DNA of 64,000 bases from an uncultured Acidobacteriota bacterium (GTDB lineage Bacteria > Acidobacteriota > Thermoanaerobaculia > Gp7-AA8 > JAHWKK01). Shown one piece after another: positions 14,971-57,592 of the stretch; within the stretch, counting starts at the first letter, position 1, and every line of letters begins with the position of its first letter. The DNA is taken from positions 97,075-161,074 of the forward strand of contig CAWHHZ010000008.1 in the NCBI GenBank assembly GCA_963829355.1. Direction: 5' to 3'. The notes beneath the pieces were generated by a model. It saw nothing but the letters and a program-made list of their open reading frames with translations. It was not told the DNA's origin and made no database searches. The position numbers were made by a program, and so were the translations under genes.

Positions 14971-15934
14971 TCATTCTGTGCCGCCTTTGCGGAGGGCTGG
15001 AGCCCTCTGCGAGTCGTCCCTGGAGGGACGACCCCCAAGTCCGGACATCGTGCAGAAGTAGACGTCCTCGAGATCGGGCTCAACCTCTTCGAAGCCGGCA
15101 CCGGGGGGGCTGTTGCTGAAGACGTGCGCAACGGTACGTCCCGCGAGGAGCTTCGTCGAGATCACCTCGTGCTCGCGCTCGATCGCCTCGAGCTCTTCCT
15201 TGCTGATGATCGTGCGCCAGATGCGGCCGCGAAGCTCGTCCACGGCACCGAGCGGCTCCGCTTCCAGAAGAATTCGCCCCTTGTTGATGATTGCCATACG
15301 GGTACAGAGCTCGGAGACGTCCTCGACGATGTGGGTCGAAAGAATGACGACGCTGTTTTCACCGAGCTCACTGAGCAGATTGAGGAAGCGGACACGCTCC
15401 GCGGGATCGAGCCCCGCGGTCGGCTCGTCGACGATCAGGAGTTTCGGGTTGCCGAGCAAAGCCACGGCGACACCGAACCTCTGCCGCATACCGCCCGAAT
15501 AGCCGCCTAGTTTCTGCTTCCGGACGTCCCAAAGGTTCGTCTGCCGGAGCAGTGCCTCGACGACACCTTTTCGCTCGCCGCGGTTGATGATCCCTTTGAG
15601 AATCGCGAAGTGATCGAGCAGCTTCTCCGCGCTCACCTTCGAGTAGACCCCGAACTCCTGCGGAAGATAGCCGAGTGTCTTCCTCAGCTCGTCCTTCTGC
15701 CGCACGACGTCGATCTCTGCCGAGCCACGCTCCCCCGCTGTCGGGCTCCTGGAGCGTGGCAAGCGTCCGCATCAGCGTCGACTTGCCCGCGCCATTCGGA
15801 CCAAGTAGCCCGAACATGCCGCGCGGAATGGTCAATGAAACATCCTTCAGTGCCTCGACTCCGTTCGAGTAGGTCTTCGAAAGATTGTCGATGCGGAGCT
15901 CGAGAGGTCGTGGTGCGAGTGCCGGTTCAGCCAT
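14971..15934 (-). pseudogene. ABC transporter ATP-binding protein (copy 1), 1-nt frameshift in a C5/G5 homopolymer at 15732-15736
   Basis: The Walker A frame ('MAEPALAPRPLELRIDNLSKTY...GPNGAGKST...LQEPDSG') starts at the ATG at 15932-15934. The remainder ('EIDVVRQKDE...LSGGM...LLIVDEPTAGLD') is in ORF 14971..15762. Alignment with paralog 19130..20065 places an extra G in 'GACAGCGGGGGAGCG'. Confidence 0.75.
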
Positions 15935-19129: not shown

Positions 19130-20065
19130 ATGGACGACACTGACTGGACGAACGGCATGGAGCTTCGGATCGAGCATCTATCCAAAACCTACGGGAATGG
19201 TGTGAGAGCGCTCGATGACGTCACCCTGACGATCCCCCGCGGGATGTATGGATTACTGGGACCGAATGGCGCCGGGAAGTCGACGCTGATGCGCACGATC
19301 GCGACACTTCAGGAGCCGGATCAAGGTGAGATCCACCTCGGGACGATCGATGTCGTTCGCCAGAAAGACGAGGTTCGGAAAACACTCGGGTACCTGCCAC
19401 AGGAGTTCGGGGTGTACGCGAAGGTCAGCGCGATCTCCCTGCTCGACCACTTTGCAATCCTGAAGGGGATCACGAACCGTGGCGAAAGGAAGGACGTGGT
19501 CGAGGCGCTGTTGCGGCAGACGAACCTGTGGGGCGTCCGAAAGCAGAAACTCGGCGGCTACTCAGGCGGAATGAAGCAGCGCTTCGGCGTCGCCGTCGCT
19601 CTCATCGGGGACCCGAAGCTCCTCATCGTCGACGAGCCGACGGCCGGACTCGATCCTGCCGAGCGAGTGCGCTTTCTCAATCTCCTCAGCGAGCTCGGAG
19701 AGAACAGCGTCGTCATTCTCTCGACGCACATCGTCGAGGACGTCTCCGAGTTGTGCACACGCATGGCGATCATCAGCCGTGGGCGGATCCTGCTCGAGAC
19801 CGAGCCACTGCGTGCCGTCGCAGATCTGGAAGGGTCGATCTGGCGAGCGATCATCTCGCGCACCGATCTCAAGGCGATCGAGCGCGAGCAGGCGGTGATC
19901 TCCACAAAACTGCTCGCCGGCCGGACAGTTGTCCACGTGTTCAGCAACACCAGCCCCGGCGCCGGTTTTGAGCCGGTCACCCCGGACCTCGAGGACGTGT
20001 ACTTCAGCGCCATGACCGGACAGATCGGCCGGCTCGATGAGCCGTATACGGTAGTCATCTCATGA
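19130..20065 (+). CDS. ABC transporter ATP-binding protein (copy 2, intact)
   Basis: Walker A 'GPNGAGKST', signature 'YSGGMKQR' and Walker B 'LLIVDEPTAGLD'. About 85% identical to the frameshifted copy 1. Confidence 0.85.
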   Translation: MDDTDWTNGMELRIEHLSKTYGNGVRALDDVTLTIPRGMYGLLGPNGAGKSTLMRTIATLQEPDQGEIHLGTIDVVRQKDEVRKTLGYLPQEFGVYAKVSAISLLDHFAILKGITNRGERKDVVEALLRQTNLWGVRKQKLGGYSGGMKQRFGVAVALIGDPKLLIVDEPTAGLDPAERVRFLNLLSELGENSVVILSTHIVEDVSELCTRMAIISRGRILLETEPLRAVADLEGSIWRAIISRTDLKAIEREQAVISTKLLAGRTVVHVFSNTSPGAGFEPVTPDLEDVYFSAMTGQIGRLDEPYTVVIS

Positions 20066-20222
20066 TCAGCACGCGTCCGACAACTCATCTCGAGCCCAGC
20101 CCCAGCCGCGTCGGTGCGCTTCAGGGAAGCGTTCGCAAGCCAGCCATCGTACGAGCTCCCGCTACGCTGCACGATCCGGATGCAGCGGAATCTCGCGTGT
20201 CCGTCGCGGCGGAGGTGGTGCG

Positions 20223-23200
20223 ATGAGAAAGATGCTGGAGGTGTTCCGTTTCGAGCTTACCTACCAGTTGCGGCGTCTCTCGACGCTGGTCTATTTCGTC
20301 ATCGTTCTCGGCCTCTGCATCATGCTCATGCAGGTGATGGCCGAGGAGGAAACGTACTTCAATGCGCCCTACGTCGTCACGGTTGCGGTGGTGGTGGGGA
20401 GCCTGCTCGCGCTGCTGATCGTCGCCGCCTTCGCCGGGGACGCCGCGACACGGGACATCGAAGAGCGGATGCACCCGCTCTTCTACAGCTCACCCGTGGG
20501 GAAGGGCGCGTATCTGAGCGGGCGCTTCCTGGGAGCATTCGTCGTCAGCGCACTCGTCTTCTCCGCTCTTCCTTTCGGTGCACTCGTGGCGACGTGGATG
20601 CCGGGAGTCGAGCCGGAGACACTCGCCCCCTTCAGCGTCTCGGTGTATGTCGTGCCGTACCTTCTCTTTGCGCTGCCGAACGCATTCGTCGCGACAGCCT
20701 TGATGTTCGGTCTCGCGACGCTCACGCGCCGGTCGATCGCGAGCTATGCAGGTGCCGCGTTTCTCTTCTTCTTCTCCATGGTGTGCGGAAAACTCGTGGC
20801 GCCGCAGGTTGGCTGGAGCGTCGGAAAGCTACTCGATCCGATAGGCTACGCGACTGTCTGGGAGTTGTGGTTGTCGCTGAATCCGATCCAGAAGAACACG
20901 TTCGTTCTGACCCTGGATATGGCGCTGCTCAGAAATCGTCTGCTCTGGATCGGTTTGGGACTGGCGGTTCTCGGTGTGACGTATGCCCGGTTTCGATTCG
21001 CACACGGAGCCGCCTCCCGGCGACGAACATGGATTCGGCGGCAGCCGGCGGAGGTCGATGATCACGTCCGCCGGGAAGCCATCGCGGTACCGCCGACGAG
21101 ACGAGTCTTCGACGTCTCGACCCGCGCGCGGCAACTGCTCACGATCACGACACGCTCGTTCCGCGACCTTCATACGAGCCGGGTGTGGTGGATCGTTCCC
21201 CTGGTGGTCATCTTCTTTTTGTTGAATGCGCCGGAGCTGACGACGCTGGAGATGGGAACCCCCGGACCGATGACCACGGCACGCCTCCTGGGGTTCGTCA
21301 GTGGGGACGTGTCGGTGTTGCTGACGATCCTGATCGCCCTGCTCGCCGGAGAGCTCGTCTGGCGCGAGCGCGACTCGCGTCTTCATCCGCTTACCGACGT
21401 CACTCCGGTACCTGGATGGATTCCGGTGGCGGGCAAGTTCCTCGCTCTCGCCCTGATGCTCGCCGTAACCCTCGGCATCTTCCTCCTCGCAGGCGTCTAC
21501 CTGCAGACGGGCGTCGGTAGCGATCGAGTCGATCTGGCACTCTACGTTCAGGTCCTGTACGGACTCCAACTACCCGAATATCTGCTGATCGCCGCGCTTG
21601 CAATCGTGATTCACGTCGTGGTGAATCAGAAGTACGTCGCGAACGCCATCCTCGTGCTCCTTCCCGTCGTGAGAGAACACATCGGAGTCGACAGGCTTCT
21701 GCTCTACGGCAGTCTTCCGAAATGGGGGCACTCAGCGATCTCCGGTTTTGGTCCGGGCGTCGAAGCACGACTCTGGTTTACTCTCTACTTCGGCGGATGG
21801 GCGCTGCTCTTTGTGGTGGTGAGTCATCTCTTCTGGATCCGAGGCGAGGGAGGTGGCCTGAGGCGTAGAGGCGCGATCGCCCGGCGGCGCATGACGCGGG
21901 CGGCCGCCATGCTCGGCGCCGCCGGCCTTGCAACGATTGCCGGCGCCGGTGGCTTCATCCTCTACCAAACTTATATTCGGAACGAGTCTCCGTCGGCTGC
22001 CCGGATCGAGCAGCGGCGCGCGGAGTACGAGCGTCGCTACGGGCACTACGCGTCCCTCCCCCAGCCGGTTCCAACGGGGACGAAGCTACAGGTCGATTTC
22101 TACCCCCGTCGAGGCGAGGCCATGATTCGCGGGAGCTATCGTCTCGAGAATCGCAGCAACACGGCGATCGACGCGATCCATGTCGCCATCGCGGACGCGG
22201 CCAAAACGACCGTGGTGTCTTTCGATCGCGCCTCACGCGCGACGCTTACCGACGACGCGATGGAGTACAGGATCTACGCGCTCGATCAGGCGCTTGAAGC
22301 GGGCGAGTCGCTGCGTATGGATTTCGAGGTCGGTATCGAGACCAATGTGTTCAGCGATTACGTCCTCCCTCCAGCCGTGCGGAATGGTTCGGTGATCACA
22401 CACAAGCCGCGAGACGGTCAACATTGGCTGCCAATCATCGGATATCAGACGTTTCGGGAGCTCGACAGCGCCGTCCTGCGCAAGAAGTACGGACTTCCTG
22501 AACGCCCGCCTTACCCACATCTCGGTGACAACCCTGTCGGCAATGAGCAGAAGGGGTATGAACAGGTCCAGCTCGAGACGATCGTCGGCACCGACGCCGG
22601 TCAGATCGGCGTTGCCCCCGGGGAGTTGCGCCGAACGTGGACCGAGAATGGTCGCCGCTATACCCACTACGCCACCGACGCACCGATCAGCAACGCCTGG
22701 GCGATCACCTCTGCGGACTATGCGGTGCACCGCGCCGAGTGGACGTCACCGTCCGGCGAGACGGTCGACATCGAGATCTTTCACCACCCGACACACACGG
22801 CGAATCTCGAGCGAATGGAGCACAGCGCGAAGGCTTCGCTCGATTACAACACGAAGCAGTTCGGCCCGTACCCGTACCGACAGCTCCGGTTTGTGGAAAC
22901 ACCGAGCGCATCGTTCTGGCTGGGGATGAGTGCGTACAGCGGTCTGATCACGTTCCAGGAGGGCTTCTCACTCCTTAGGCCCGAAGATGACTCGCGAGCG
23001 ATCGATTTCCCGTTCGCCGTGGTAGCCCACGAAGTGGGACATCAGTGGTGGGGGCATCAGCTCACGCCGGCCCTCGTCGAAGGCGCGGCGTTTCTGGCGG
23101 AGAGTCTCTCCTGGTACAGCGGCATGCTCGTGGTGGAGGAGACCTTCGGCCGCGAGCATCTGCAGCGAATCCTCGACATGATGCGCGCGCAATACATGGG

Positions 23201-23795
23201 GCCGCACCAGCCGCGTGAGGTCCCGCTGCTTCGTGCCGTCGAGCAACTCGACGCCTATCGGGTGGGGCCGTTCGCGATGTACGCCCTGCGTGAAGCCGTC
23301 AGTGTCGACACTGTGAACGACGCACTGCGGAACCTGCTCGCGAAGTTCCCGCCGGGACGCGCACCGTACCCGACGACGCTCGACTTCTACGCGGAGCTGC
23401 GCACCGCGACTCCCCCCTCGATGCACTGGCTTCTGAAGGATCTATTCGAAGAGATCACGTTCTGGGATCTTCGTGCGAAGGGCATGGAGGTCGAGAGGGC
23501 GGAGACCGGTGGTCATCGCGTGAAATTCGAGGTGGAGGCTCAGAAGCTGAAGGGTGATGAAACAGGGACTGAGCGAGTCGTCCCCATGAACGATCCGGTC
23601 GAGGTGGTCTTCTACGACGGGGATGGCGATGCTGTCTACCGAAGGTCTCATCGCCTTCGCTCGGGAGCGCAGACGATCGAGGTCACCGTCGCTCGTCCTC
23701 CCGTGCGTGCGGCGCTCGATCCCGACCACGAGTTGCTGGATCGGAACACGGACGACAACGCGGTCGCGATCGGCAACGGGGCTCGCAATGAGTGA
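20223..23795 (+). CDS. ABC-2-type permease fused to M1-family zinc metallopeptidase (copy 2)
   Basis: 1190 aa. The N-terminus 'MLEVFRFELTYQLRR' parallels copy 1's 'MKFLEVIRFELFYQFRQ'. M1 motif 'VVAHEVGHQWWGHQ...LAESLSWY'. No GAMEN. Confidence 0.8.
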   Translation: MRKMLEVFRFELTYQLRRLSTLVYFVIVLGLCIMLMQVMAEEETYFNAPYVVTVAVVVGSLLALLIVAAFAGDAATRDIEERMHPLFYSSPVGKGAYLSGRFLGAFVVSALVFSALPFGALVATWMPGVEPETLAPFSVSVYVVPYLLFALPNAFVATALMFGLATLTRRSIASYAGAAFLFFFSMVCGKLVAPQVGWSVGKLLDPIGYATVWELWLSLNPIQKNTFVLTLDMALLRNRLLWIGLGLAVLGVTYARFRFAHGAASRRRTWIRRQPAEVDDHVRREAIAVPPTRRVFDVSTRARQLLTITTRSFRDLHTSRVWWIVPLVVIFFLLNAPELTTLEMGTPGPMTTARLLGFVSGDVSVLLTILIALLAGELVWRERDSRLHPLTDVTPVPGWIPVAGKFLALALMLAVTLGIFLLAGVYLQTGVGSDRVDLALYVQVLYGLQLPEYLLIAALAIVIHVVVNQKYVANAILVLLPVVREHIGVDRLLLYGSLPKWGHSAISGFGPGVEARLWFTLYFGGWALLFVVVSHLFWIRGEGGGLRRRGAIARRRMTRAAAMLGAAGLATIAGAGGFILYQTYIRNESPSAARIEQRRAEYERRYGHYASLPQPVPTGTKLQVDFYPRRGEAMIRGSYRLENRSNTAIDAIHVAIADAAKTTVVSFDRASRATLTDDAMEYRIYALDQALEAGESLRMDFEVGIETNVFSDYVLPPAVRNGSVITHKPRDGQHWLPIIGYQTFRELDSAVLRKKYGLPERPPYPHLGDNPVGNEQKGYEQVQLETIVGTDAGQIGVAPGELRRTWTENGRRYTHYATDAPISNAWAITSADYAVHRAEWTSPSGETVDIEIFHHPTHTANLERMEHSAKASLDYNTKQFGPYPYRQLRFVETPSASFWLGMSAYSGLITFQEGFSLLRPEDDSRAIDFPFAVVAHEVGHQWWGHQLTPALVEGAAFLAESLSWYSGMLVVEETFGREHLQRILDMMRAQYMGPHQPREVPLLRAVEQLDAYRVGPFAMYALREAVSVDTVNDALRNLLAKFPPGRAPYPTTLDFYAELRTATPPSMHWLLKDLFEEITFWDLRAKGMEVERAETGGHRVKFEVEAQKLKGDETGTERVVPMNDPVEVVFYDGDGDAVYRRSHRLRSGAQTIEVTVARPPVRAALDPDHELLDRNTDDNAVAIGNGARNE

Positions 23796-24031
23796 TCGAA
23801 AGGACGAAGCCGAAGGTGCTCATTGGGTGACGCACCTCCCCGGCCTGCCTCGAAACCGGAACCGGCCGGGACGTTCGCGACGCGTCCTCACTCGAGCGCA
23901 AGCTCGATCGCCTTTTCCAGATCCTCGTCGCTTCCCGCGGCGACGCCAGCAATCGTTCGTGTGACTTCGACGTGAGGGATCAGACCCACCCGCTGAATTG
24001 ACGTCCGTCGGCATGGCGGACATCCATAGCG

Positions 24032-24302
24032 GTGAACATGATCAGATTCTCACCGGGCAGCCTCGTGAAGCTGACGTTCCCGTTGGAGCCGGAGGTCGAT
24101 GACCTCGATCGAGCGGCGGCTGACGAAGCCGTTCTATCGGATTCATCGTTCCACGATCGTCAATGCAGACGCCGTTCACGAGGTCGAAACCGATCGTGCC
24201 GGCACGACCGCGGTGATTCTCAAAGACGGTACCCGACTCAGCTCGAGTACCTCCTACCGCGACAGCGTGGAGGCAATGCTGGAGGATTCAACTAGCTTCT
24301 GA
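24032..24302 (+). pseudogene. LytTR DNA-binding domain remnant (C-terminal fragment, receiver domain absent, internal frameshift)
   Basis: ORF 24099..24302 has 'TKPFYRIHRSTIVNADAVHEV...ILKDGTRLSSSTSYRDS' (a LytTR core). The upstream 'SLVKLTFPLEPEV' is in another frame. There is no room for a receiver domain before the stop of the preceding gene at 23795. Confidence 0.5.
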
Positions 24303-24312
24303 GTGGCCGTAG

Positions 24313-25238
24313 ATAGGGGTAGGGAGAGGCCCTTAGTTAGGCCTCCCCCTCCCTCCGAACCGGACGTGCGGATCTCCCGCATCCGGCTCTCCGGTTGGTG
24401 AGTTACCTGCGATAGGGCTGTCGGACGTTCGCGTGTTCTGCGCTGAGGATGAACAGACCGCGATCGGCAAAGAAGCGGTTGGGCCAGCGATAATGGTCGT
24501 GTCCTCGTCCACTGCGACGGCGGTGAGAGCGTCGGAACTTGCGTCTGCTCAGCACCGCCCGAAGGCGATACCGAACGTACTGATCAAGCTGCGTGAACGC
24601 ACCGCGTGAGCTGTGTTTGAAGAACGCGAACCATCCTCGCAGGACCGTTGCCTCCTTTGACCCCTCTTTCGAGGGCTTCCAGCATGCGTTCGGTCCAGAC
24701 TCGGGCTTCGACCCATGGCCATCGGCCTCGGATCTCTCCGCCGCGCTCTAGGTCTCCCACTGCTCGCGGTTGGTCTTGCTCTTGTCTGTCTGTCACGCAT
24801 TCACCTTCCTGCCCTCCTTTGCTCCACGCCCGTTACGACGCTTCCCAGCTCTTATGAGGGCTCTGACTTCCCGCCCACGGTCATCCGCCGCGGCGGGGGA
24901 TCCCCGGTTCACTACACTCGAACTTCCTACCGTTCTGTCTCCAACCACACCCATGACTCCCTCGGTCGCTTTCTCTTCACGCTCTTTCCCTCAGCGCCAG
25001 GGCTCTCCCTTAGGGCCGTTTCCCGTCTGCACCCACCGGGTCTTCGGGCTTCGGACAAACCCCGCAGCCTCGCCAGTCATAAATGCCGAATCGAGTTTCT
25101 CTCGTACGGACCGGTAGTTCACCTCCAGTTGCTCTCCACCCCGCCTTACGGCGACGCAGTTACTTTCGGTTGTCAGCCAGTGAGCGGCTGGCTGGAAGGG
25201 ACTCTCACCCTTCTGTTCAAGTGCGCTCCCGAGCGCAC
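24313..25238 (-). mobile_element. group II intron (about 926 nt) with internally deleted intron-encoded protein
   Basis: On the minus strand, the 5' end is GTGCG at 25238. Domain V is GAGCCGGATGCGGGAGATCCGCACGTCCGGTTC at 24389..24357. Domain VI is a helix GGGAGGGGGAGGCC/GGCCTCTCCCTACCCC with a bulged A at 24320, 7 nt from the 3' end '...CUAU' (24313). The IEP remnant at about 24440..24796 has 'RVWTERMLEALERGVKGG' (RT domain-0 N-terminus) joined directly to 'RGWFAFFKHSSRGAFTQLDQYVRYRLRAVLSRRKFRRSHRRRSGRGHDHYRWPNRFFADRGLFILSAEHA' (domain X / C-terminus), with the RT core missing. Confidence 0.75.
24357..24389 (-). ncRNA. group II intron catalytic domain V
   Basis: 33-nt hairpin with the AGC triad and two-nucleotide bulge. 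It matches the bacterial DV consensus GAGCCGUAUGCG...CGCACGUACGGUUC at 30 of 33 positions. Confidence 0.8.
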
Positions 25239-25359
25239 GGGGTCGGACGTCCTCGTCCGATGAGTCCCGGCGTCCTCGCCGAGGACCTCATGCTGCGCAG
25301 CGCCAACTTACGCGGAGCCGGGGACGGCTTCGCGCCATCGGACGGGGACGTCCGACCCC
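25239..25359. other. long hairpin (24-bp stem, 73-nt loop) immediately 5' of the intron insertion point and 17 nt downstream of the TPR gene stop
   Basis: GGGGTCGGACGTCCTCGTCCGATG (25239-25262) is the reverse complement of CATCGGACGGGGACGTCCGACCCC (25336-25359) with one mismatch. Confidence 0.7.
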
Positions 25360-25375
25360 CACTGCGGGCTGCACC

Positions 25376-27574
25376 TCACCACTGCGCCGCGAGATCGGGA
25401 CGGCCGAGACTTCGGTAGGCCTCGGCGATCATCGCTTTCGTCGAGGGTGATGGGTTGGAGGCCGAGAGGGCACGCATCGTTCGCTCGGCCTCGCCGGCAT
25501 TTCTCTGAAGAAGCTGAATCGCGGCGAGTCGGATGTACGCTTCCCTGTTCTGAGGGAACTCGTCCGCTTCCCGGCGGAACGCTCCCTTCGCCTCGTCGAG
25601 CCGGCCCTGGCGCGCAAGGATGTCTGCTCGGGTGAACGATTCACCAGCAACCCGATCTCCCGGCGTCGACTCCAGTTGTTCGAGGATTGCGAGCGCCTCG
25701 TCGAGACGACGCTGCGCCACCAGCGCCTGCGCGCGGACGACGAGTGCATCATCCCGCGTGGCGCTGTCGGCGAGTGCCGCACCGAGGGCCCCGTCCGCTT
25801 CGGCGGCTCGACCGATCCCGATCAGAGCACGTGCTCGCACCAGCGCGGCACTCGACGGATGCGCATCTTCGCGCGAGATCAGCGTGATCGAGTGCCTCCT
25901 GGAACTGACCCAGCTTCAGATACACCTCTGCAAGAGAGAGAGCTGTTCCCGGGGCGAGCAGCGGTGAAACGTCGATGGTTCTGCGGTACGCATTGACCGC
26001 GTCCTCATACCGGCCCGACAGATCGTACGCGCGGCCGAGAAGGGTCCATGCGTCCGCAAAGGCCGGATTTCGCGACAACGATCTTCTCGAGCGCGACGAC
26101 GGCGCTCGCACTATCGCCCTCCCGGATCGATCGGGTGGCCACCATGTAGGCTTCCAGATCACCGATACGCTCCTTTGGATCTGGCAGGGCGCCATTCGAG
26201 CTCGCACCTCCGCCACCGAGATACCCGAGCGCCGAGAGCTTCGAAGCTTCTTCAGACGAAATCGCGGTCGGAGCGGCGAGCGCGCGATCATACGTCAGCG
26301 AGCTCGTCCCGCATCGACGCGTACGTCCTTCGCTCGCCCGCGAGGATGTTGCGGGCCTCGCCCGGATCGCTCGACAGATCGTACAACTCCGGCGACGGTG
26401 CCTCGATGTAGTGGAACGTCGTGCCGACGAGCGACGCGAGATCGCTCCACCCGAGATGGATGCGCGGGTACATCGTCTCGCTGTAGATGCGACGTTCTTC
26501 AGCGTCGTCATCAGTGAGCAACGAATGCCCTGCGACCGCGGATGGATCGTAATCGAGACCGGCAAGCGTCGCGATCGTGGGAAAGATATCGATCAGTCCG
26601 ACGGGCCGTTCGACTCTGGTCGCCGCCTGCTCGGAACCGGCAAGTTTGACGAACAGCGGAACGTGGATCGCTTCGCGGTAGAGAAAGATTCCGTGCTCGC
26701 TCTCGCCGTGATCACCGAGACCCTCTCCATGATCGGACATGAAGATGATCGTCGCTCCGTCGTAGAGACCGCTCTGGCGGAGATGGTCGAGGAACCGCCC
26801 CACGTAGGCATCTGCCGTGGCAATTTCGCCGTCGTATGGACGGTCGGCGTACGCTTTTGCAAACGGCTCCCCCGGCTCGTATGGGGTGTGAGGCTCGAAC
26901 AGGTGGACGAACAGAAAGAATTGGTCGGAGCCAACTGAGTCGATCCACTCGAGTGCGGACGATACCGTGAGGTCACCGCTTCGCTGGATCTCTCCCACGA
27001 TCGCACCGGGCATACTCTCCATCTCGTCGTCGTAGTGGTCGAACGCGGCTCCGAGACCGGTCTCCTTCCGCAGTACGTATGCCGACACGGCTCCCCCGGT
27101 CATGTATCCCTTTTTCTTCAGCAACAGAGGCAGCGACGGCATCGTCGGATCGAAGCGGTATCCGAGGTTGTTGCGGACTCCAGTCGCCGCGGGGAGCCTG
27201 CCCGTGAGCATCGATACGTGCGAGGGGAGCGTGAGCGGGACCTGCGAGTACGCATTCTCGAACACGATCGAGTCGGCAGCGAGCGCATCGATCGCAGGCG
27301 TCTCGACACCCGTTGCTCCGTAGACCGGAAGATGATCGGCCCGCAGAGTATCGACAGAAATGATAATGACCGGACCGGAGGCGGCAGGCGAGGACACGTC
27401 CTCGCGGCCACAGGCGGACGTCAGGAGAAGCAAGAGGACGAAAGATGAAAGATGAAAGATGAAAGATGAAGGTCGTGGCACTGCGGGGATTTCATTGCTC
27501 ATCGTTATGCCTTCGCTCATAGCTCCGCCTCCATCGCTCCGCTCCGTCCTTTCATCGTTCATCTCATCGTTCAT
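25376..27574 (-). pseudogene. sulfatase-like hydrolase/transferase fused to TPR repeats (paralog of 27614..29701). The sulfatase domain ORF is intact and the TPR half is broken by about 3 frameshifts
   Basis: ORF 26288..27574 is the sulfatase domain ('IIISVDTLRADHLPVYG'). The linker and TPR regions align to the intact paralog but are spread over ORFs 26005..26565, 25749..26291 and 25376..25840 in three frames. Confidence 0.55.
27437..27471. repeat. (GATGAAA)x5 heptamer array, lying inside the signal-peptide codons of the minus-strand sulfatase gene
   Basis: The reverse complement encodes 'PSSFIFHLSSFV' of the ORF 26288..27574 N-terminus. Confidence 0.85.
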
Positions 27575-27628
27575 CTTTCATTCGTTCATCGTTCATCGTT
27601 CATCGTTCATCGTTCATCGTTCGTTCAT
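27550..27628. repeat. (CGTTCAT)n heptamer array (about 6 perfect units plus degenerate units)
   Basis: Direct reading. It overlaps the stop codon of 27614..29701 and the 5' region of 26288..27574. Confidence 0.85.
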
Positions 27629-29701: not shown

Positions 29702-29778
29702 GCTGACACTAACGAGAGGATGGGGCTCTCTGCTTCCTGAGGAGACCCGCCCTCGCGGAGTCGAGCTCTACAGAAGGT

Positions 29779-29911
29779 GTCATCCTGAGCCGCCGGATCC
29801 CGCGAAGCGGGAGGAGGACGGTCGAAGGATCTCGTGGAGCCTACCGGCCCGAAGTTCGGCTCCAGTCAGGACGTACCCGATCCTTCCCCCGCGGAGCGGG
29901 GTCAGGATGAC
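29779..29911. repeat. nested inverted-repeat intergenic element, type A (GTCATCCTGAGC...CAGGATGAC)
   Basis: Terminal inverted repeats plus the internal 'CCCGCGAAGCGGGAGGAGG' motif shared with the copy at 42441. Confidence 0.7.
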
Positions 29912-33964: not shown

Positions 33965-34259
33965 TCGCTGCCTCCTGCGGCTGGGAGTGCAAGCTCCACG
34001 CAAGGGCTGGTTCTCTTGATGCGGAGGAACACGGGGTCGCGTCGCAAATCACCCGACCGGCTCCTCTCTTCCACGGAAACAGAGACGGCCTTCGCGGCGC
34101 GGTCGCCACATTGCGGATCTGCGGCGTGGCAGCTGCCGATGCTGCCTCGACATGAGTTCGAAGAAACTGTCATTCCGAAGGAGCAGCTTCATCGCGACTG
34201 AGGAATCTGGCGGGGGGCCAGCCGCTTCCCCCGGAGGCCCGCTGCTCTGCCCCGGTGCA

Positions 34260-34358
34260 GTCATCCTGAGCGCCAGCGAAGGATCGCGTACGGCTGACTC
34301 TACGGAAAGTACGTGGCAGTCGGGACGCACCCGATCCTTCACAGCCTCTCAGGATGAC
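34260..34358. repeat. nested inverted-repeat element, type A (short version)
   Basis: GTCATCCTGAGCGCC ... CTCAGGATGAC with the internal CGAAGGATCGCGTACG core. Confidence 0.7.
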
Positions 34359-34703
34359 TGCACTTTCGTGGTCGCTGTCGAGGAACCCACTCCCTCCATT
34401 ACACTTCACCCGTGAGCTCTCGTGTGGAAGTGGCTGCCCGTCTGATCTGCGCTGCCCGGCGTCTGGTGGTCGTGACCGGTGCGGAGATCAGCGTCGCGAG
34501 TGGACTGCCGATGTTCGTCGGGACGTCGTATTCGGTCGGGATCACAGCCCTGGCGCTCGACGCTGCCCGAATGCTCTCGATTCCCGTCACTTCAATCGAT
34601 CCCGCGGGCAACGCGCCACCCGGGGCGATCAGCATCGAGCTGAACGCCGAGGACGCACTACCGCGAATCGTCCAAGAATGTCATTGAACCGAAAGCGGTT
34701 CAG

Positions 34704-35291: not shown

Positions 35292-35296
35292 AGCGG

Positions 35297-35333
35297 GGTT
35301 CAGAGGTTCAGGGTTCAGGGGTTCAGGGGTTCA
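35297..35333. repeat. (GGTTCAG)x5 heptamer array
   Basis: Direct reading, immediately after the stop codon at 35291. Confidence 0.85.
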
Positions 35334-35343
35334 ACTGAAAACG

Positions 35344-35485
35344 GTGGACGGGGAGGACGGGCGTGGACCCGGGTGGACGGAGTGGACAGAGACGTGGACG
35401 AAAGACTGGAAATGTCGCAGTGCCCATGGTCCACGTTTTTGTCCACGTCTCTGTCCACCCACGTCCACGCGTCCACGCCAGTCCA
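35344..35485. repeat. inverted arrays of GTGGAC (left) and GTCCAC (right) hexamer repeats, forming a roughly 55-bp imperfect long hairpin between convergent genes
   Basis: For example, GTGGACAGAGACGTGGACG (left) is the exact reverse complement of CGTCCACGTCTCTGTCCAC (right). Likely a bidirectional terminator built from repeats. Confidence 0.75.
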
Positions 35486-35506
35486 CGAGTTTGAGCTCTT
35501 GAACCC

Positions 35507-38196: not shown

Positions 38197-38336
38197 CTAC
38201 CATCTCCGTTCGATCCGCGCTGTTCGCCAGCGGTCATCCGCGATTCACAATTTACAGAGAGCATCGTGGATTCACAAAATGATCCCGGCCGTCAGACTCC
38301 CCACTTCAACTACAAGTTACTGAAAGATGATGACCT

Positions 38337-38450
38337 GTCATCCTGAGCCGCCGGAGCGCAGCGGAGGACGGTCGAAGGATCGCGTACGGCCCGACTCTCA
38401 GCCCGGAAAGTACGCGACAGTCAGGCCTTACGCGATTCGCTCAGGATGAC
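38337..38450. repeat. nested inverted-repeat element, type A
   Basis: GTCATCCTGAGCCGCC ... GCTCAGGATGAC. The inner perfect inverted repeat is CGAAGGATCGCGTACG / CGTAAGGCCTGACTG-like. Confidence 0.7.
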
Positions 38451-38516
38451 TGTCGCTTCTGCAATCGCTCCTGTCTCCGCGCGGCTCGTGAATTCTTCGT
38501 TACGGAGGACGCTCCG

Positions 38517-42410: not shown

Positions 42411-42440
42411 GCCGCCGATCTTTAGGAAGATCCCACGCAT

Positions 42441-42594
42441 GTCATCCTGAGCCGCCGGATCCCGCGAAGCGGGAGGAGGCCTGCCCTGAGCGAAGCCGAA
42501 GGGACGGTCGAAGGATCGCGTACGATCCGACTGTCAGCACGGAAAGAACGCGACAGTCAGGACGTACGCGATCCTTCGCTTCGCTCAGGATGAC
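42441..42594. repeat. nested inverted-repeat element, type A (longest copy)
   Basis: GTCATCCTGAGCCGCCGGATCCCGCGAAGCGGGAGGAGG ... CGAAGGATCGCGTACG ... CGTACGCGATCCTTCG ... GCTCAGGATGAC. Confidence 0.75.
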
Positions 42595-42656
42595 ATGTGC
42601 CAAATGGTCCATTAGAAGGCGCCGCGAGAGCTGGGGACACCGCTGACAGCTCGGGT

Positions 42657-44275: not shown

Positions 44276-44377
44276 ATGGCGAACCAGTCATCAATGATGG
44301 TTCCTGTCCTGGTTGAACAAACCTCAGTGCTGAATGCTGAATGCTGATGGAGTGATTGGCCGGCGCGGCAGCCGGGC

Positions 44378-49837: not shown

Positions 49838-50506
49838 TCACTCTGTCCCGATTCCCGACCATCCGAGGCCGAGGCTCTGCGCCTCTTCGGTGAAGTCTTG
49901 CGGCACTGGAGCCTGGATCGACAGGCGCTCTCCGGTCTCCGGATGATTCATCGACAAGGTCCACGCGTGAAGCATCGGTCTCTTCTCTTCCTGTTCCGTT
50001 CCGTACAACCAGTCGGCGACCAGGGGATGACCGATCGACGACAGATGGACCCGGATCTGATGTGTGCGTCCGGTCATGAGCTCGATACTCAGGAGCGTGG
50101 CCCTGCTGCTGTGCGCAAGTGGCGTCAGACGCGTCAGTGCCCGCTTTCCACCCGCGCCAACCGCGAATGAGATCGGTCCGACACGCTCGAGCGGCGCGTC
50201 GATGAGCTGCGGCACCGCAAGCTCCCCCTCGACGAGTGCGAGATAGGTCTTGTGCACGTCCTTCCGCTCGAACGCACGCGTCACGCGCGGATTCATCTCA
50301 CTCTTTTTCGTGAAGAACATCACGCCGCTCGTCCCGCGGTCGAGCCGCTGCATGAGAAACACTTCCTCGCCGCGCTCCCGTGCCCGCTCGTCCATGATCG
50401 CGTGGAGGTTCGGCTCCTCAGCATCGTACGCCTGCTGGACCAGCAGCCCCGCGGGCTTGGCGATGAAAACGATGTAGTCGTCTTCGTAGAGGATCGGGGG
50501 GAGCAT
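49838..50506 (-). CDS. RluA-family pseudouridine synthase
   Basis: 'MQRLDRGTSGVMFF' (catalytic Asp motif), '...HQIRVHL'. Confidence 0.85.
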   Translation of the reverse strand: MLPPILYEDDYIVFIAKPAGLLVQQAYDAEEPNLHAIMDERARERGEEVFLMQRLDRGTSGVMFFTKKSEMNPRVTRAFERKDVHKTYLALVEGELAVPQLIDAPLERVGPISFAVGAGGKRALTRLTPLAHSSRATLLSIELMTGRTHQIRVHLSSIGHPLVADWLYGTEQEEKRPMLHAWTLSMNHPETGERLSIQAPVPQDFTEEAQSLGLGWSGIGTE

Positions 50507-50510
50507 ATCT

Positions 50511-50580
50511 GAACGATGAACGATGAACGATGAACGATGAACGATGAACGATGAACGATGAACGATGAACGATGAACGAT
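50511..50580. repeat. (GAACGAT)x10 perfect heptamer array abutting the rluA-family start codon
   Basis: Begins 5 nt upstream of the ATG at 50504-50506 (minus strand). It occupies the position where an RBS or promoter would be. Confidence 0.9.
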
Positions 50581-50661
50581 GAAACCGAACGCTTAATGGT
50601 GAGCTACGTTAGCCTATGAATCACCATCAGGCAAAGCAGCTCCAGACGCCGTTTTTCCTCT

Positions 50662-50691
50662 CATCGTTCAGCGTTCAGCGTTCATCGTTCC
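50662..50691. repeat. (CGTTCAG/CGTTCAT) heptamer array just 3' of the NamZ-like gene stop
   Basis: catcgttcagcgttcagcgttcatcgttcc. Confidence 0.8.
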
Positions 50692-50693
50692 AA

Positions 50694-51872
50694 TCACTCC
50701 TCGTACAACAGAAACTCCTCGCGCGCTTTCGCGAACGACCTGAGGGAGTCCTCCCATTCGTGGATCCAGGCGTCCAGATCCTCTCCGTTTTCAACGAGGT
50801 GACGGAAGCGGGCGGTTCCGGCGAGGAGATCGATCGCCAGACGATCGGCGACGAACTCGTATGGCTCGCGGCGCCAGTCGAACTTCTCCGGATCGAGATC
50901 ATGGGCGATCTTGATGCACCAGAGACCGGTGCGATATGGCTCGAAGGTGTTCCGGTCGGTGACGTGCAACTCGACACCGCCGCAGACTTTCCCCGCGTGT
51001 TTCTGAAACGTCGGCAGAAAGTAATGGGGCCTGAAGCGGACCCCTGGGAGCTCGAGATGATTCAGTGCCTCCGCGAGCCGGAAGGGGTCGAGCCACGGCG
51101 CGCCGAAGAACTCGAACGGATGAGTCGTACCACGTCCCTCGCTCAGATTGGTTCCCTCGACCAGACACATGCCGGGGTAAACGGTCGCCGTAAACACCGT
51201 CGGCATGTTCGGTGACGGAATGACCCAGGGCAGATCGGTGTCACCCCACCACATCGACCGTCGCCACCCGCGCATCGGCACCACGGTGAGTTTCGAATCG
51301 AGCTCAAAGGTTTTATTGAAATACCGGGCGAGCTCACCCGCGGTCATTCCATGCCGGGTAGGCAGAGGGAAAAGACCGACGAAGCTTTCGTATCCTTCCT
51401 CTCGCAGGTTTCCTTCGAGATGGATGCCGTCGATCGGGTTGGGGCGGTCGAGCACGATGACCTCGATGCCGAGCGGGGCCGCCACTTTCATGCAGAGCGC
51501 CATCGTATAGATGAATGTGTAGTACCGCGATCCGATGTCCTGAAGATCGATGACCAGCGCGTCGAGATTCGCAAGAAGTTCCGGTGGCGGCTCGAGTGCC
51601 TCCCGGCTCTTGCCGTAGAGCGAGTGAACGGGAAGACCCGTCAGCGGATCGCGCGAGCTCTCGACATGCGCCATATCCTGCTCCTCGCCCCAGATCCCGT
51701 GCTCGGGTCCGAAAAGCTGGACCAGCTTCCAACCCCTTCCCGCCTGGAGAAGCGACATCGAGTGCCGCAGGTCACGAGTTACGGCGCTCTGGTGGGTGAC
51801 GAGCCCGATCCTCTTGCCCATGATCGGCTTCGGGTTCTCGATGAGGACTTCCAGTCCGGGTACCACGCTCAT
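50694..51872 (-). CDS. DUF1343 / NamZ-family exo-beta-N-acetylmuramidase-like protein
   Basis: 392 aa. 'RIGLVTHQSAV...LFGPEHG' N-terminal Rossmann-like pattern and overall DUF1343 architecture. Confidence 0.7.
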   Translation of the reverse strand: MSVVPGLEVLIENPKPIMGKRIGLVTHQSAVTRDLRHSMSLLQAGRGWKLVQLFGPEHGIWGEEQDMAHVESSRDPLTGLPVHSLYGKSREALEPPPELLANLDALVIDLQDIGSRYYTFIYTMALCMKVAAPLGIEVIVLDRPNPIDGIHLEGNLREEGYESFVGLFPLPTRHGMTAGELARYFNKTFELDSKLTVVPMRGWRRSMWWGDTDLPWVIPSPNMPTVFTATVYPGMCLVEGTNLSEGRGTTHPFEFFGAPWLDPFRLAEALNHLELPGVRFRPHYFLPTFQKHAGKVCGGVELHVTDRNTFEPYRTGLWCIKIAHDLDPEKFDWRREPYEFVADRLAIDLLAGTARFRHLVENGEDLDAWIHEWEDSLRSFAKAREEFLLYEE

Positions 51873-52369: not shown

Positions 52370-52445
52370 GCCTTCCGAATCCTGAATGCTGAAAGAAAGG
52401 CAACGAGCATTCAACATTCAACGTCCCAGCCCCCCTTCTCCAAAC

Positions 52446-52510
52446 CGACAACCGACAACCGCCAGAACTGCCGAGAACTGAGAACCGAGAACTGAGAATT
52501 GAGAACCGAC
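52446..52510. repeat. heptamer arrays (CCGACAA)x2 and (GAGAACT-like)x5 in the divergent mogA/queA intergenic region
   Basis: Direct reading. Confidence 0.8.
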
Positions 52511-53799: not shown

Positions 53800-53907
53800 G
53801 TCATTCCGAACGATCCCGCAAAGCGGGAGAGGAGGAATCTGGGGTGCAATGCAGGTCTGCCGCCCAGATTCCTCAGTCGCGATGAGGCCGCTCCTTCGGA
53901 ATGACAG
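53800..53907. repeat. nested inverted-repeat element, type B (GTCATTCCGAA...TTCGGAATGACAG); preceded by a type-A terminal fragment at 53742-53754
   Basis: Shares 'GAGGAGGAATCTG...AGATTCCTCAGTCGCGATGA..CCGCTCCTTCGGAATGACAG' with the copy at 57469. Confidence 0.7.
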
Positions 53908-54020
53908 GGAACGCCGAACCCGCATAGTTGCAGTACGCCATCCTTCGCTGACTCTCAGGACGACAAATTTTCGAACGGCTCCGGTTCAACCCGTGTTAGA
54001 ACCTTCCGAGGACTGACCGC

Positions 54021-56090: not shown

Positions 56091-56132
56091 GCCAGAACCA
56101 TGCATCGCCGCGGCGCCTGGCAAAAACCAGGT

Positions 56133-56244
56133 GTCATCCTGAGCCGCCGCAGGACGGCCGAAGGATCGCGTTCGGCCCGACTCTCAGGACGGAAAGTACG
56201 CGACAGTCAGGACGCACCCGATCCTTCGCTGCGCTCAGGATGAC
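56133..56244. repeat. nested inverted-repeat element, type A
   Basis: GTCATCCTGAGCCGCC...GGACGGCCGAAGGATCGCG...GCTCAGGATGAC. Confidence 0.75.
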
Positions 56245-56322
56245 ATATTCGTATTGACAAATCTGATCTGTGGCCTTATCTTCTATACATATTCGCTTGA
56301 ACGAATTCTCAAGAGGAGTCAG

Positions 56323-57468: not shown

Positions 57469-57592
57469 GTCATTCCGCCTGCCCTGAGGAGCGAAGCGAC
57501 GTAGGGAACGAGCGAAGCGAGGAGGAATCTGTTGGGTGGACTCCACGCCGAGATTCCTCAGTCGCGATGAAACCGCTCCTTCGGAATGACAG
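57469..57592. repeat. nested inverted-repeat element, type B
   Basis: See the copy at 53800. Confidence 0.7.

Follow-up and report, generated by a model that had tools for sequence, protein, structure and literature searches.

Foldback pairs of heptamer arrays in the intergenic gaps of Thermoanaerobaculia, including a NamZ-rluA junction of an uncultured Acidobacteriota bacterium

In an uncultured Acidobacteriota bacterium, the two heptamer arrays located between a NamZ gene and an rluA-type gene are one inverted pair, which forms a foldback hairpin occupying the whole spacer from the NamZ stop to the rluA start. Hundreds of such intergenic repeat hairpins are present in this soil lineage of Thermoanaerobaculia. 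They have a common architecture and an intergenic placement, differ widely in their repeat units, carry mirrored variants in arms that usually match each other in copy number, change rapidly, and at particular orthologous junctions persist with units that are clade-specific. We lean towards regarding them as foldback microsatellites, i.e., DNA-level palindromes that would result from slippage and arm-to-arm copying, with incidental effects on the mRNA. The window referred to below is the whole 64,000-nt stretch analysed; these 64 kb of the source genome were compared with 1.84 Mb from about 150 relatives, at most 21 kb each.

The focal junction was composed of the following features:

49838-50506, minus strand: rluA-type gene (Pfam PseudoU_synth_2)
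50504-50506, minus strand: ATG start codon of the rluA-type ORF (49838-50506), at the 3' base of the hairpin
50510-50583, minus strand: long arm, (TGAACGA)x10.6, 100% matches (TRF)
50584-50660, minus strand: loop (central spacer) of 77 nt (sequence)
50661-50690, minus strand: short arm, TCATCGT TCAGCGT TCAGCGT TCATCGT TC, 4.3 units (TRF)
50694-50696, minus strand: TGA stop codon of the NamZ ORF (50694-51872), at the 5' base of the hairpin
50694-51872, minus strand: NamZ gene (Pfam NamZ_N and NamZ_C)

The long array had been described in an earlier note as ten perfect heptamers butted against the rluA start codon. It is indeed real and perfect, with TRF setting its copy number at 10.6 and its end at 4 nt from the ATG; the short array begins 3 nt past the NamZ stop codon, as both flanking genes lie on the minus strand. 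The inverted pairing of the two had been overlooked. TRF called the short array as (TCAGCGT)x4.3 with 91% matches; it is the reverse complement of the long array and forms the 5' arm in the mRNA, the long array, which reads (UCAUCGU)n on the transcribed minus strand, forming the 3' arm. An inverted-repeat search paired the arms over 30 nt, with 93% complementarity, in at least five registers spaced 7 nt apart. The long arm is the longest perfect period-7/8 array in the 1.84 Mb of related sequence, its unit contains no G-run, and the element is among only 4 out of 74 whose arms differ by at least five units. The loop has a small hairpin of its own (TGGTGA at 50597-50602 and TCACCA at 50621-50626). 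The RNA was predicted to fold with -82.8 kcal/mol (z = -5.5); the MFE structure had a frequency of 0.004 and the centroid structure retained the inner hairpin only, which points to many alternative registers. The array lies outside both ORFs and contains no in-frame start codon, and the rluA N-terminus (MLPPILYEDD) agrees with that of its orthologues. The closest relatives found, in genomes and metagenomes, had about 80% NamZ identity.

The other arrays listed in the earlier note were all recovered by TRF, and further structures were found beside them:

27440-27470, minus strand: arm of a second element, (GAAAGAT)x4.4, perfect (TRF)
27471-27550, minus strand: loop of the second element, 80 nt (translation)
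27551-27622, minus strand: partner arm of the second element, (TTCATCG)x10.4, imperfect (TRF and inverted-repeat search)
35295-35333, no strand assigned: (GGTTCAG/GGGGTTCA)x5 array (TRF, sequence)
35344-35487, no strand assigned: inverted pair of GTGGACG-type (35344-35410) and CGTCCAC-type (35429-35487) arrays (TRF)
44328-44347, no strand assigned: short unpaired array, (TGCTGAA)x2.9, weak (TRF)
52377-52419, no strand assigned: small hairpin of TGAATGC-type units, GAATCCTGAATGCT / AGCATTCAACATTC (inverted-repeat search; TRF 52408-52422)
52443-52506, plus strand: unpaired direct arrays (AACCGAC)x2.7 and (GAGAACT)x4.9 (TRF, sequence)

The partner arm at 27551-27622 shares its cyclic unit with the focal array, is 100% complementary to 50511-50551 over 41 nt, and overlaps the stop codon (27614-27616) of an upstream sulfatase-TPR gene; the loops of the two elements showed no similarity and are unrelated. 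Judging from the translation, the 27440-27470 arm is probably read as SSFIFHLSSF, as part of the signal peptide of a sulfatase lipoprotein encoded downstream, whose start codon likely falls within the loop (ATG at 27502 or GTG at about 27481). The 35295-35333 array follows directly on the stop of a chalcone-isomerase-like gene and forms the outer portion of a compound element occupying a convergent gap; the inner pair has a period of 7-10, a 19-nt loop and 29-nt arms with 86% complementarity. The small hairpin at 52377-52419 lies immediately 5' of the start of a minus-strand MoCF-domain gene, and its unit is also that of the 44328-44347 array. The 52443-52506 arrays, located in a divergent gap, end 12 nt from the queA ATG (52519; Pfam Queuosine_synth). 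The inverted-repeat search found no partner for either the 44328-44347 or the 52443-52506 arrays. According to Pfam, the genes beside the arrays of the window are housekeeping genes. The GC content of the window was about 61%, and not 65% as had been stated.

With equal TRF thresholds, seven period-7 arrays were detected in the 64-kb window, versus none in either E. coli K-12 (100 kb) or Markov-shuffled window (640 kb); the period-7 arrays of the window are far beyond chance. In a larger set, 214 arrays had a period of 7, 72 a period of 8 and 7 a period of 6, and merging gave 154 elements, or 7.8 per 100 kb, of which 98 had a period of 7 and 31 a period of 8. In a smaller set, an inverted partner was located within 350 nt for 150 out of 257 arrays (98 out of 145 with period 7 and 33 out of 46 with period 8), versus 0, 13 and 7 for reversed, complement and direct control partners, respectively. 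A typical element consisted of about 4.4 units per arm and a 27-nt loop, spanning 91 nt. We counted 94 distinct heptamer units, with a mean GC content of 57% and up to seven different ones within 21 kb of one genome (L064). GAAC or GTTC, said to be present in every unit of the window, is absent from GATGAAA, AACCGAC and TGAATGC; across the lineage it occurred in 9 out of the 94 units versus 6.2 expected, without enrichment, and was rejected as a family motif. The GAAC theme is a peculiarity of the source genome, and what the elements have in common is their period (7, then 8), together with an architecture of inverted pairs.

The placement of arrays at gene boundaries was confirmed: 137 out of 219 period-7/8-type arrays were intergenic and 52 lay in spurious 5' ORF extensions, while most of the "internal" arrays corresponded to one orthologous site 5' of a histidine kinase. 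The signal-peptide arm at 27440-27470 is a probable exception to the non-coding placement. Elements were distributed among gap types similarly to background (70 tandem, 18 divergent and 11 convergent, versus 639, 187 and 173), and those in tandem gaps other than the NamZ-rluA junction started a median of 5 nt past the upstream stop. Intrinsic terminators were discarded, with a T-rich tract 3' of only 1 out of 70 tandem-context elements and no terminator-like site found within the focal gap. Integron attC sites were considered as they are structure-conserved, sequence-diverse hairpins between co-directional ORFs. They were rejected on inspection of units and termini (e.g. GAACGAT, AAAGATG, TTGAAAA), which do not fit the RYYYAAC ... 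GTTRRRY cores, and on their context, which includes syntenic housekeeping flanks as well as convergent and divergent gaps.

The two arms of an element closely matched each other. Complementary variants were mirrored on both arms at 173 positions versus about 8.5 expected, and one element (L038:8081) was an exact palindrome, odd units included. The copy numbers of paired arms were also coupled, with a median difference of 0.6 (Spearman 0.41, p = 3e-4). From the mirrored variants, we infer that one arm serves to rewrite the other, through intrastrand, hairpin-templated template switching or through repair. As foldback microsatellites, the elements would arise and be maintained at the DNA level: replication slippage would alter the number of units, with a 7-nt preference such as Mrazek et al. 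ascribed to the length of polymerase-DNA contact, and arm copying would keep the palindrome near-perfect while unit sequence and length (7 to 8) drift in concert. Ectopic copying might occasionally seed intergenic sites in the neighbourhood. The focal 10-unit perfect arm could then be a recent one-sided slippage expansion of a roughly 4+4-unit element. Any effect on expression would be a by-product. The mRNA hairpin, very stable and register-degenerate, brings the NamZ stop together with the rluA start at its stem base; it would hide the nucleotides ahead of the AUG and could be cleaved by double-strand-specific RNases. The sharp 7-nt ruler, which has no demonstrated cause, counts against this reading.

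The junction itself could be followed in relatives, with NamZ and rluA syntenic in more than 80 genomes. It was occupied in 23 out of 80 cases by a strict criterion (at least 29% of genomes) and in about 35-40 out of about 62 by folding, and about 20 genomes had no element there. Each clade had its own repeat unit, and along the series GTTGCCG, GTTGTCG, GTTATCG and the 8-mer GGTTGTCG both arms changed together. In 35 occupied junctions, the stem extended from a median of 1 nt past the stop to a median of 1 nt before the start; in element-free junctions the stop-start distance ranged from -8 to +28 nt, so that the two genes overlap or abut. Since stop and start stay adjacent at the stem base, a self-folding insert was probably tolerated in this formerly overlapping, coupled junction.

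The same junction lends itself to an RNA-level explanation, in which the hairpins would be selected between cistrons, for RNase III-type processing, as a barrier for mRNA stability or as a gate making rluA translation dependent on ribosomes that melt the stem base on terminating at NamZ, and would be tuned by copy number. We regard this as possible, if on balance doubtful. The frequent occupancy of the NamZ-rluA junction across deep divergence, with arms changing together, is consistent with it, as are the coincidence of the stem base with the stop and start codons, the short distance from the upstream stop in other tandem gaps and the very stable folds (median of -62 kcal/mol per 91 nt across elements, in addition to the focal value). 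Translational coupling is moreover plausible, given that the genes overlap or abut without the element. However, sense and antisense folds had similar energies (-71.8 versus -71.1 kcal/mol, p = 0.60), and G.U-type mismatches were not in excess of A.C-type ones (49 versus 37); this lack of strand asymmetry weakens RNA-level selection. Divergent and convergent gaps are also used, at about background frequency, and elements were completely lost between close relatives (L120 versus L140; L072 versus L076), in addition to the genomes without any element at the junction. The tandem-repeat nature of the arms is left unexplained, and no array of the window matched an Rfam 15 family at the gathering threshold, the sole match being Intron_gpII at 24313-24391. 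On the other hand, occupancy by the strict criterion was very uneven across orthologous gaps, from 0 out of 86 to 23 out of 80, which is not obviously expected of purely neutral gain and loss of foldback microsatellites and could reflect selection of the hairpin at some junctions.

Gain, loss and length change were observed at short evolutionary distances. Among L143, L148 and L158 (about 97% identity), copy-number indels of 7-63 nt were found inside arrays, and arrays were present at orthologous intergenic sites of relatives. The absence from orthologous gaps and the fixed length against which the earlier note had set its proposal are thus not what was seen in these relatives. An element of 88-100 nt present in L140 was absent in L120 (95.4% identity); no target-site duplication was found at this one clean occupied/empty pair, in which a 16-nt spacer was replaced wholesale and the stop and start codons differed too. 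Some copies within one genome had a common non-repeat inner stem or loop (three in L038, two in L030 and two in L075): those of L038 had in common the unit and an inner stem, ATCTGTGG...CCGCAGA, and those of L030, which were compound, had in common their arrays and about 80 nt of loop. Such copies require copying between sites beyond slippage and template switching, which is a further difficulty for the reading as foldback microsatellites.

They would be expected if the elements were mobile DNA, i.e., MITE-like or foldback-transposon-like sequences moved in trans by a structure-recognising transposase, with the arms as terminal inverted repeats. The same heptamer was indeed found at different sites more often within a genome (6 out of 32 pairs) than between genomes (37 out of 2048), as in the window, where the 27551-27622 and 50510-50583 arrays have one unit and are identical over 41 nt. 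Nesting of elements within the loops of others (L038:9795, L064:4450) and the presence/absence polymorphism point the same way. Nevertheless, we judge mobility to be quite unlikely: the occupied/empty pair revealed neither target-site duplication nor conserved termini, 94 different units would require dozens of cognate transposases, and at a single orthologous site the units change in place and by degrees. Most same-unit pairs, including the two in the window, had no common loop (common loops in 7 out of 75 versus a 3% background, a weak enrichment). The REP/BIME head GTAG/CTAC was not enriched either (4 out of 94 units versus 2.8 expected).

The earlier note had suggested that the arrays could modulate promoter spacing or translation initiation by copy-number change, in the manner of contingency switches, or that a nucleoid or regulatory protein could bind to them as arrays. 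Copy number does differ between related strains, and arrays abut start codons, both at the focal junction and 12 nt before queA. If the 27440 arm lies in the sulfatase signal-peptide coding sequence, as is probable, a one-unit slip would shift the frame, and this arm may have the placement of a contingency SSR in a 5' coding region. Heptad arrays bound by one protein also have precedents, such as the heptads of pSM19035, which are bound by the omega repressor. A further precedent is CspB on heptamer repeats (cited in PMC4679880). Despite these points, such a switch or binding role appears very improbable. Promoter spacing does not fit the focal gap, which is intra-operonic, lies within a co-directional pair that overlaps or abuts in element-free relatives, and contains no sigma-70-like site that we could find; a phase-variable SSR was rejected for the focal array, which lies neither between -35 and -10 elements nor in a 5' coding region. 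A single sequence-specific binder is hard to reconcile with 94 units, up to seven of them within 21 kb of a single genome. In addition, the hairpin pairing of two thirds of the arrays is not predicted, and the neighbours are housekeeping genes, whereas contingency loci typically involve surface or antigen genes. The idea of an influence on translation initiation survives in part: an effect on rluA is plausible by way of a hairpin covering the nucleotides ahead of the ATG, but not through displacement of a ribosome-binding site, since no relative, including those without the element, has a Shine-Dalgarno sequence there. In phage T4 gene 38, a hairpin brings a Shine-Dalgarno-like motif next to the AUG. 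A split ribosome-binding site, with GAGGAG at the NamZ 3' end, was discarded as a general model, the motif being found at 2 out of 18 element-free and 10 out of 43 element-bearing junctions.

A stronger version of the account by slippage and hairpin-templated copying can be envisaged, although we consider it unlikely as a whole. The two processes would constitute a self-perpetuating drive in which the palindrome lasts over long evolutionary times at one intergenic site and survives the full turnover of its unit sequence and even of its unit length, making the elements a prokaryotic counterpart of eukaryotic foldback elements with a tunable effect on operon expression. They would be preferentially retained at coupled junctions, where a stop-start stem base would preserve or conditionally gate translational coupling.

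Since 2007, heptamer repeats have been recognised as the most frequent long microsatellites of scattered bacterial lineages, with their origin and function unexplained. Thermoanaerobaculia are unusually informative in this respect: with hundreds of elements per genome and so many units, sequence-specific explanations, such as G-quadruplexes or one binding protein, fall away, and the features left standing are a ruler of 7-8 nt, the pairing of inverted arms and the mirroring of variants. The NamZ-rluA junction, with unrelated hairpin sequences in dozens of genomes, is a natural experiment opposing DNA-level maintenance to RNA-level selection, and could also show how ribosomes handle a stem of -80 kcal/mol that separates a stop from a start codon. 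From a practical point of view, the elements will confuse ORF callers, as the longest ORFs run into arrays and one arm may encode part of a signal peptide, and they will cause trouble for assemblers and for operon and terminator prediction in Acidobacteriota MAGs.

Among known systems, the eukaryotic Foldback (FB) transposons are kilobase-scale elements with an associated transposase and long inverted arms of short tandem subrepeats. The elements described here have similar inverted arms, of unequal or variable length, and a central region which is variable or absent, but they are on a scale of about 90 nt and without sign of transposase-mediated mobility. The REP/BIME extragenic palindromes, characterized by GTAG or CGTC heads and a RAYT transposase (Di Nocera et al. 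2013, PMC3733652), are likewise abundant intergenic hairpins of about 30 bp per arm, located at operon junctions and with possible effects on mRNA stability. They form families of near-identical palindromes, whereas the arms here are internally tandem-repetitive and the families many and small.

Closer likenesses are found among heptamer repeats. The cyanobacterial STRR heptamers and the TAACTGA direct repeats of Beggiatoaceae and cyanobacteria, for which an as yet undemonstrated role in translation has been put forward (MacGregor 2015, PMC4679880), are intergenic tandem heptamers that often end only 1 nt or a few nt ahead of a start codon. In each genome those repeats use a single fixed unit or very few, directly oriented with respect to the downstream gene and in 2-6 copies, with one inverted case in 170 sets (PMC4679880), whereas here the units are diverse and inverted pairs are the rule. 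Among long SSRs with units of 5-11 nt, heptanucleotides were reported to be the commonest, and polymerase slippage was proposed (Mrazek, Guo & Shah 2007, summarised in PMC4679880). As in that summary, heptamers dominate here and arrays are non-coding: the focal array has 10.6 perfect copies, with no period-7 array in the shuffled and E. coli controls, and units that are not a multiple of 3 are intergenic or in spurious extensions in the proportions given above (137 and 52 out of 219). Unlike here, the arrays are treated in the summary as single direct repeats, and a foldback architecture is apparently absent from its description.

The closest system is that of the GGGAATC heptamers of Xanthomonas, with 70-75 convergent (inverted) pairs per genome, located at conserved gene pairs, variable in length and sequence, not associated with IS elements and of unknown function (Rehm et al. 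2015, PMC4692102). The elements described here are similarly intergenic tandem heptamers in which close opposite-strand arrays are able to form stem-loops or cruciforms, and they similarly lie between the same genes in related species with highly variable length and sequence. Convergent pairing of the Xanthomonas type was found both in the focal element (arms 93% complementary) and in 98 out of 145 period-7 arrays. They differ by their phylum, Acidobacteriota, by the occurrence of several unrelated units inside one 21-kb stretch of a genome, and by a total of at least 94 units, mostly not G-rich, as opposed to essentially one G-rich, G-quadruplex-capable unit. The mirrored variant units and the concerted drift of units documented here were not reported for Xanthomonas (PMC4692102). 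Overall, the elements are best read as a variant of the heptamer repeats already known from Xanthomonas, from cyanobacteria and from the survey of Mrazek et al. (2007).

The array described in the earlier note at 50507-50693 was recovered with TRF as (TGAACGA)×10.6 at 50510-50583, with 100% matches, and the other arrays listed there for the window were likewise present (TRF, sequence). The GC content of the window was about 61%, rather than 65% as first stated. The short array in the same gap pairs with it as its reverse complement, a relation that the note had missed.

Focal element and flanking genes
49838-50506, minus strand, ORF of an RluA-type pseudouridine synthase (Pfam)
50510-50583, long arm, (TGAACGA)×10.6, 100% matches (TRF)
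50661-50690, short arm, (TCAGCGT)×4.3 (TRF)
50694-51872, minus strand, ORF of NamZ (Pfam)

Given the Pfam identities of the two minus-strand ORFs, the 187-nt gap separates the NamZ stop from the start of rluA. In an inverted-repeat search, the arms were 93% complementary over 30 nt, with at least five pairing registers at 7-nt spacing. Fold prediction of the gap as minus-strand RNA gave -82.8 kcal/mol (z = -5.5). Only 0.4% of the ensemble adopts the MFE structure, and a small inner hairpin is all that the centroid retains; the arms thus slide between registers.

Three other inverted pairs of arrays in the window exhibited the same architecture.

Inverted pairs with the architecture of the focal element
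27440-27470 and 27551-27622
35344-35410 and 35429-35487
52377-52390 and 52406-52419

The focal unit recurs at 27551-27622, identical over 41 nt, and the loops of these two same-unit elements were unrelated. With identical TRF thresholds, seven period-7 arrays were found in the window, whereas E. coli K-12 (100 kb) and Markov-shuffled window sequence (640 kb) had none, which excludes a chance origin.

The element at 27440-27622 also touches coding sequence. The sulfatase ORF at 26288-27574 (minus strand) reads ...PAVPRPSSFIFHLSSFVLLLLLTSAC..., with a lipoprotein-like signal peptide, and the only in-frame starts allowing a workable signal peptide (ATG 27502 and GTG ~27481) both lie within the hairpin loop, so that the (GAAAGAT)×4.4 arm at 27440-27470 is probably translated, as SSFIFHLSSF. 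Gain or loss of one unit would then shift the sulfatase frame. The upstream gene, a sulfatase-TPR gene, ends inside the right arm, which covers its stop codon.

All of the best NamZ relatives, with amino-acid identities of 70-81%, came from soil MAGs of the class Thermoanaerobaculia of the Acidobacteriota; an exact-protein look-up returned no identical protein. A census of 160 orthologous loci from related genomes (L-numbers below; 1.84 Mb without duplicates) yielded 214 tandem arrays of period 7, 72 of period 8, 42 of period 9, and 7 of period 6, with periods 14, 21, and 42 also present. A reverse-complement partner was located within 350 nt for 150 of the 257 first short-period arrays (98 out of 145 with period 7; 33 out of 46 with period 8), versus 0 in reversed-sequence, 13 in complement-only, and 7 in direct-repeat controls. 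After arms were merged and duplicates dropped, 143 elements remained, a density of 7.8 per 100 kb, which extrapolates to a few hundred per genome. The typical element had a median span of 91 nt, a median loop of 27 nt, and about 4.4 units per arm. Arrays were intergenic or fell where a longest ORF is spuriously extended at its 5' end.

One orthologous hot site, with inverted arrays of the GTGGGGA / CCCACAC type (L072:13258-13483, L068:13200-13467, L052:13273-13430, L009:16356-16451, and L080:2897-2926), was observed 750-950 nt inside the longest ORF of a large histidine kinase downstream of rluA. The location suggests either a wrong start for the kinase when the longest ORF is taken, or two ORFs joined across the element. 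In the window, this site carries no element.

The shared feature of these elements is not a motif. The census contained 94 distinct canonical heptamers, with a GC content of 57% versus 64% for the genome, making the units somewhat AT-richer. The GTTC-containing family proposed from the window did not extend to the lineage: GAAC/GTTC was present in 9 of the 94 heptamers (6.2 expected), and REP-type GTAG showed no clear excess (4 of 94 versus 2.8 expected). The same heptamer recurred in 6 of 32 same-locus pairs versus 37 of 2048 between-locus pairs. As units recur within genomes and lack a lineage-wide GAAC/GTTC excess, the GTTC theme is a peculiarity of the window's genome.

Each arm of an element is a copy of the other. 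Complementary variants were carried by both arms at 173 positions, where about 8.5 would be expected under independent arm decay, and L038:8081 is an exact palindrome, two odd units included. Copy numbers on the two arms went together, with a median difference of 0.6 units and a Spearman coefficient of 0.41 (p = 3e-4), and only 4 of 74 elements differed by at least 5 units. The focal element (10.6 versus 4.3 units) belongs to these four. No other perfect array in the whole data set is as long as its long arm (runner-up, 6.7 copies); recent one-sided slippage expansion is the simplest reading.

The copy-number change anticipated earlier was apparent among L143, L148, and L158 (~97% identical), in which most indels of at least 5 nt fell in array regions (e.g., 7, 9, 15, 24, 39, 62, and 63 nt). 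Indels of larger size were insertions or deletions inside loops. Whole elements also come and go: the 10-nt spacer of L120 corresponds to a 100-nt array hairpin in L140 (95.4% identity), without a target-site duplication and with different stop (TGA versus TAA) and start (ATG versus GTG) codons. L076 versus L072 provided a second presence/absence case. At the NamZ-rluA junction, about 20 genomes had no element (spacer -8 to +35 nt) and about 40 had essentially one hairpin (spacer 37-280 nt), with units specific to each clade (AAAGATG, TTGAAAA, GGTCTCG, GTTGCGA, ATAGGCTC, and others). Graded series in some clades (GTTGCCG, GTTGTCG, GTTATCG), and an 8-mer, GGTTGTCG, on both arms in L112 where relatives have 7-mers, indicate that unit sequence and length drift in concert on both arms.

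That such elements move as MITE- or foldback-transposon-like units appears improbable. Several observations suggest copying between sites: three copies within 11 kb in L038 have a common unit and non-repeat inner stem (ATCTGTGG...CCGCAGA); two compound copies in L030, separated by 2 kb, have the same two array kinds and ~80 nt of loop in common; L075 has two partly related copies; and elements are nested in the loops of others (L038:9795; L064:4450, compared with its orthologue L049:4752). However, no duplications or conserved termini were seen at the one clean occupied/empty pair (L140 versus L120), the number of units is large, and loop sharing was weak overall (7 of 75 same-locus pairs versus 3% between loci).

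A selected intercistronic RNA hairpin is a stronger candidate, although still an unlikely one. Strict occupancy was 23 out of 80 at NamZ-rluA, and from 0 out of 86 to 13 out of 45 in other orthologous gaps (mean 9.5%); this uneven and high occupancy speaks for selection. So does the stop/start geometry: across the NamZ-rluA junctions with an element (35), the stem is predicted to begin a median of 1 nt past the stop and to finish a median of 1 nt before the start. Elements in other tandem gaps begin a median of 5 nt past the upstream stop and finish a median of 26 nt before the first in-frame start. Easy loss of the elements argues against it, as does the absence of strand asymmetry: fold energies were similar for sense and antisense (-71.8 versus -71.1 kcal/mol, p = 0.60), and sense-strand G.U-type mismatches were not in significant excess over A.C-type (49 versus 37). 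Tandem, divergent, and convergent contexts (70/18/11) showed no preference relative to background (639/187/173), and Rfam gave no match at any array. An intrinsic terminator was rejected, with a T-tract after 1 of 70 elements and none in the focal gap.

Least probable are the promoter-spacing and protein-binding models first proposed. No sigma-70-like site was found in the focal gap, which is intra-operonic. The array does not displace a ribosome-binding site, since rluA lacks a Shine-Dalgarno sequence with or without the element; nor is a hairpin-bridged split site supported, the SD-like motif at the NamZ 3' end not being conserved. A contingency-type effect is possible elsewhere, at the unpaired arrays before queA (52443-52506) and at the arm that probably lies in the 5' coding sequence of the sulfatase gene.

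We slightly favor the focal arrays being the arms of a foldback microsatellite with a four-part mechanism. Replication slippage would alter unit number, with the heptamer preference that, according to the summary in PMC4679880, Mrazek et al. (2007) attributed to the length of the polymerase-bound DNA. We infer that intrastrand hairpin-templated template switching or repair would then copy one arm onto the other. This would be quasi-palindrome correction, known from E. coli genetics, and would account for mirrored variants and concerted drift without RNA-level selection. Occasional ectopic copying would seed neighbouring gaps, and deletion would remove elements. In mRNA, the element would form a highly stable hairpin, degenerate in register, whose base holds the stop and start codons. 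Such a hairpin should be cut by double-strand-specific RNases such as RNase III and should mask the pre-AUG sequence unless its base is melted by a ribosome terminating there. The tolerance and persistence of inserts at formerly overlapping junctions may be due to this geometry. The data establish the architecture, the dynamics, and the negative outcomes of the functional tests; template switching, what sets the 7-nt ruler, and any influence on translation are inferred.

Other repeats were also observed in the window. A dispersed palindromic family, unrelated to the arrays, has the form TGTCATCCTGAGC...GGACGGTCGAAGGATCGCGTACG...CGATCCTTCGC...CTCAGGATGACA and looks MITE- or REP-like. It has at least 7 copies of ~100-200 nt, two of which match perfectly along 40 nt.

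Copies of the TGTCATCCTGAGC family
29778-29891
34167-34363
38336-38460
42440-42596
53861-53964
56132-56246
57546-57592

Its motif GTCATCCTGAGCG...GAAGGATC also occurs within array-hairpin loops of relatives L002, L073, and L079. In relatives, another palindromic family, of the GGCACAGACACTCCTGTCTGTGCC type, is present in some of the junctions that array hairpins also use (L143:4688-4850, the L036 and L137 NamZ-rluA gaps, and L100) and is the source of 140-160-nt indels between ~97%-identical strains. Rfam matched Intron_gpII at 24313-24391 on the minus strand along the whole model (58.2 bits, E = 7.5e-9). Convincing ORFs are scarce in the surrounding region (~23800-25400), and the match may mark a group II intron that is degraded or lacks an ORF. 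A two-gene module is present as a large inverted duplication (11286-15901 versus 19160-23795), with arms at 15205-15715 and 19345-19855 (511 nt, 79% complementary) flanked by ORFs of 1203 and 1190 aa on opposite strands, the paralogous gene pairs being in mirror orientation. An intergenic 23-nt tandem repeat of the TCAGCGACAATTAGACCTGCGGG type (~3 copies), outside the heptamer class, lies at 3738-3806, and two 100-nt direct copies (4558-4657 and 5149-5248; 86% identical, 591 nt apart) are each internally palindromic (GCTGAGCCGCCAGCGCACGC...GCGTGCGCTGGCCGGCTC).

This kind of repeat is already known. In SSR-rich bacteria, long SSRs most often have heptamer units, according to the summary of Mrazek (2007) in PMC4679880, and start codons are abutted by cyanobacterial STRRs and Beggiatoaceae TAACTGA repeats (PMC4679880). 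Xanthomonas carries ~186 GGGAATC arrays, variable in length and sequence, between conserved gene pairs, and these include 70-75 convergent pairs of arrays (PMC4692102). An incomplete literature search found no description in Acidobacteriota, which does not prove novelty. What is new here is the phylum; the variety of units found in individual genomes, eliminating G-quadruplex and single-binder explanations; the quantitative support for arms as mutual copies; and the tracing of one orthologous junction over dozens of genomes.
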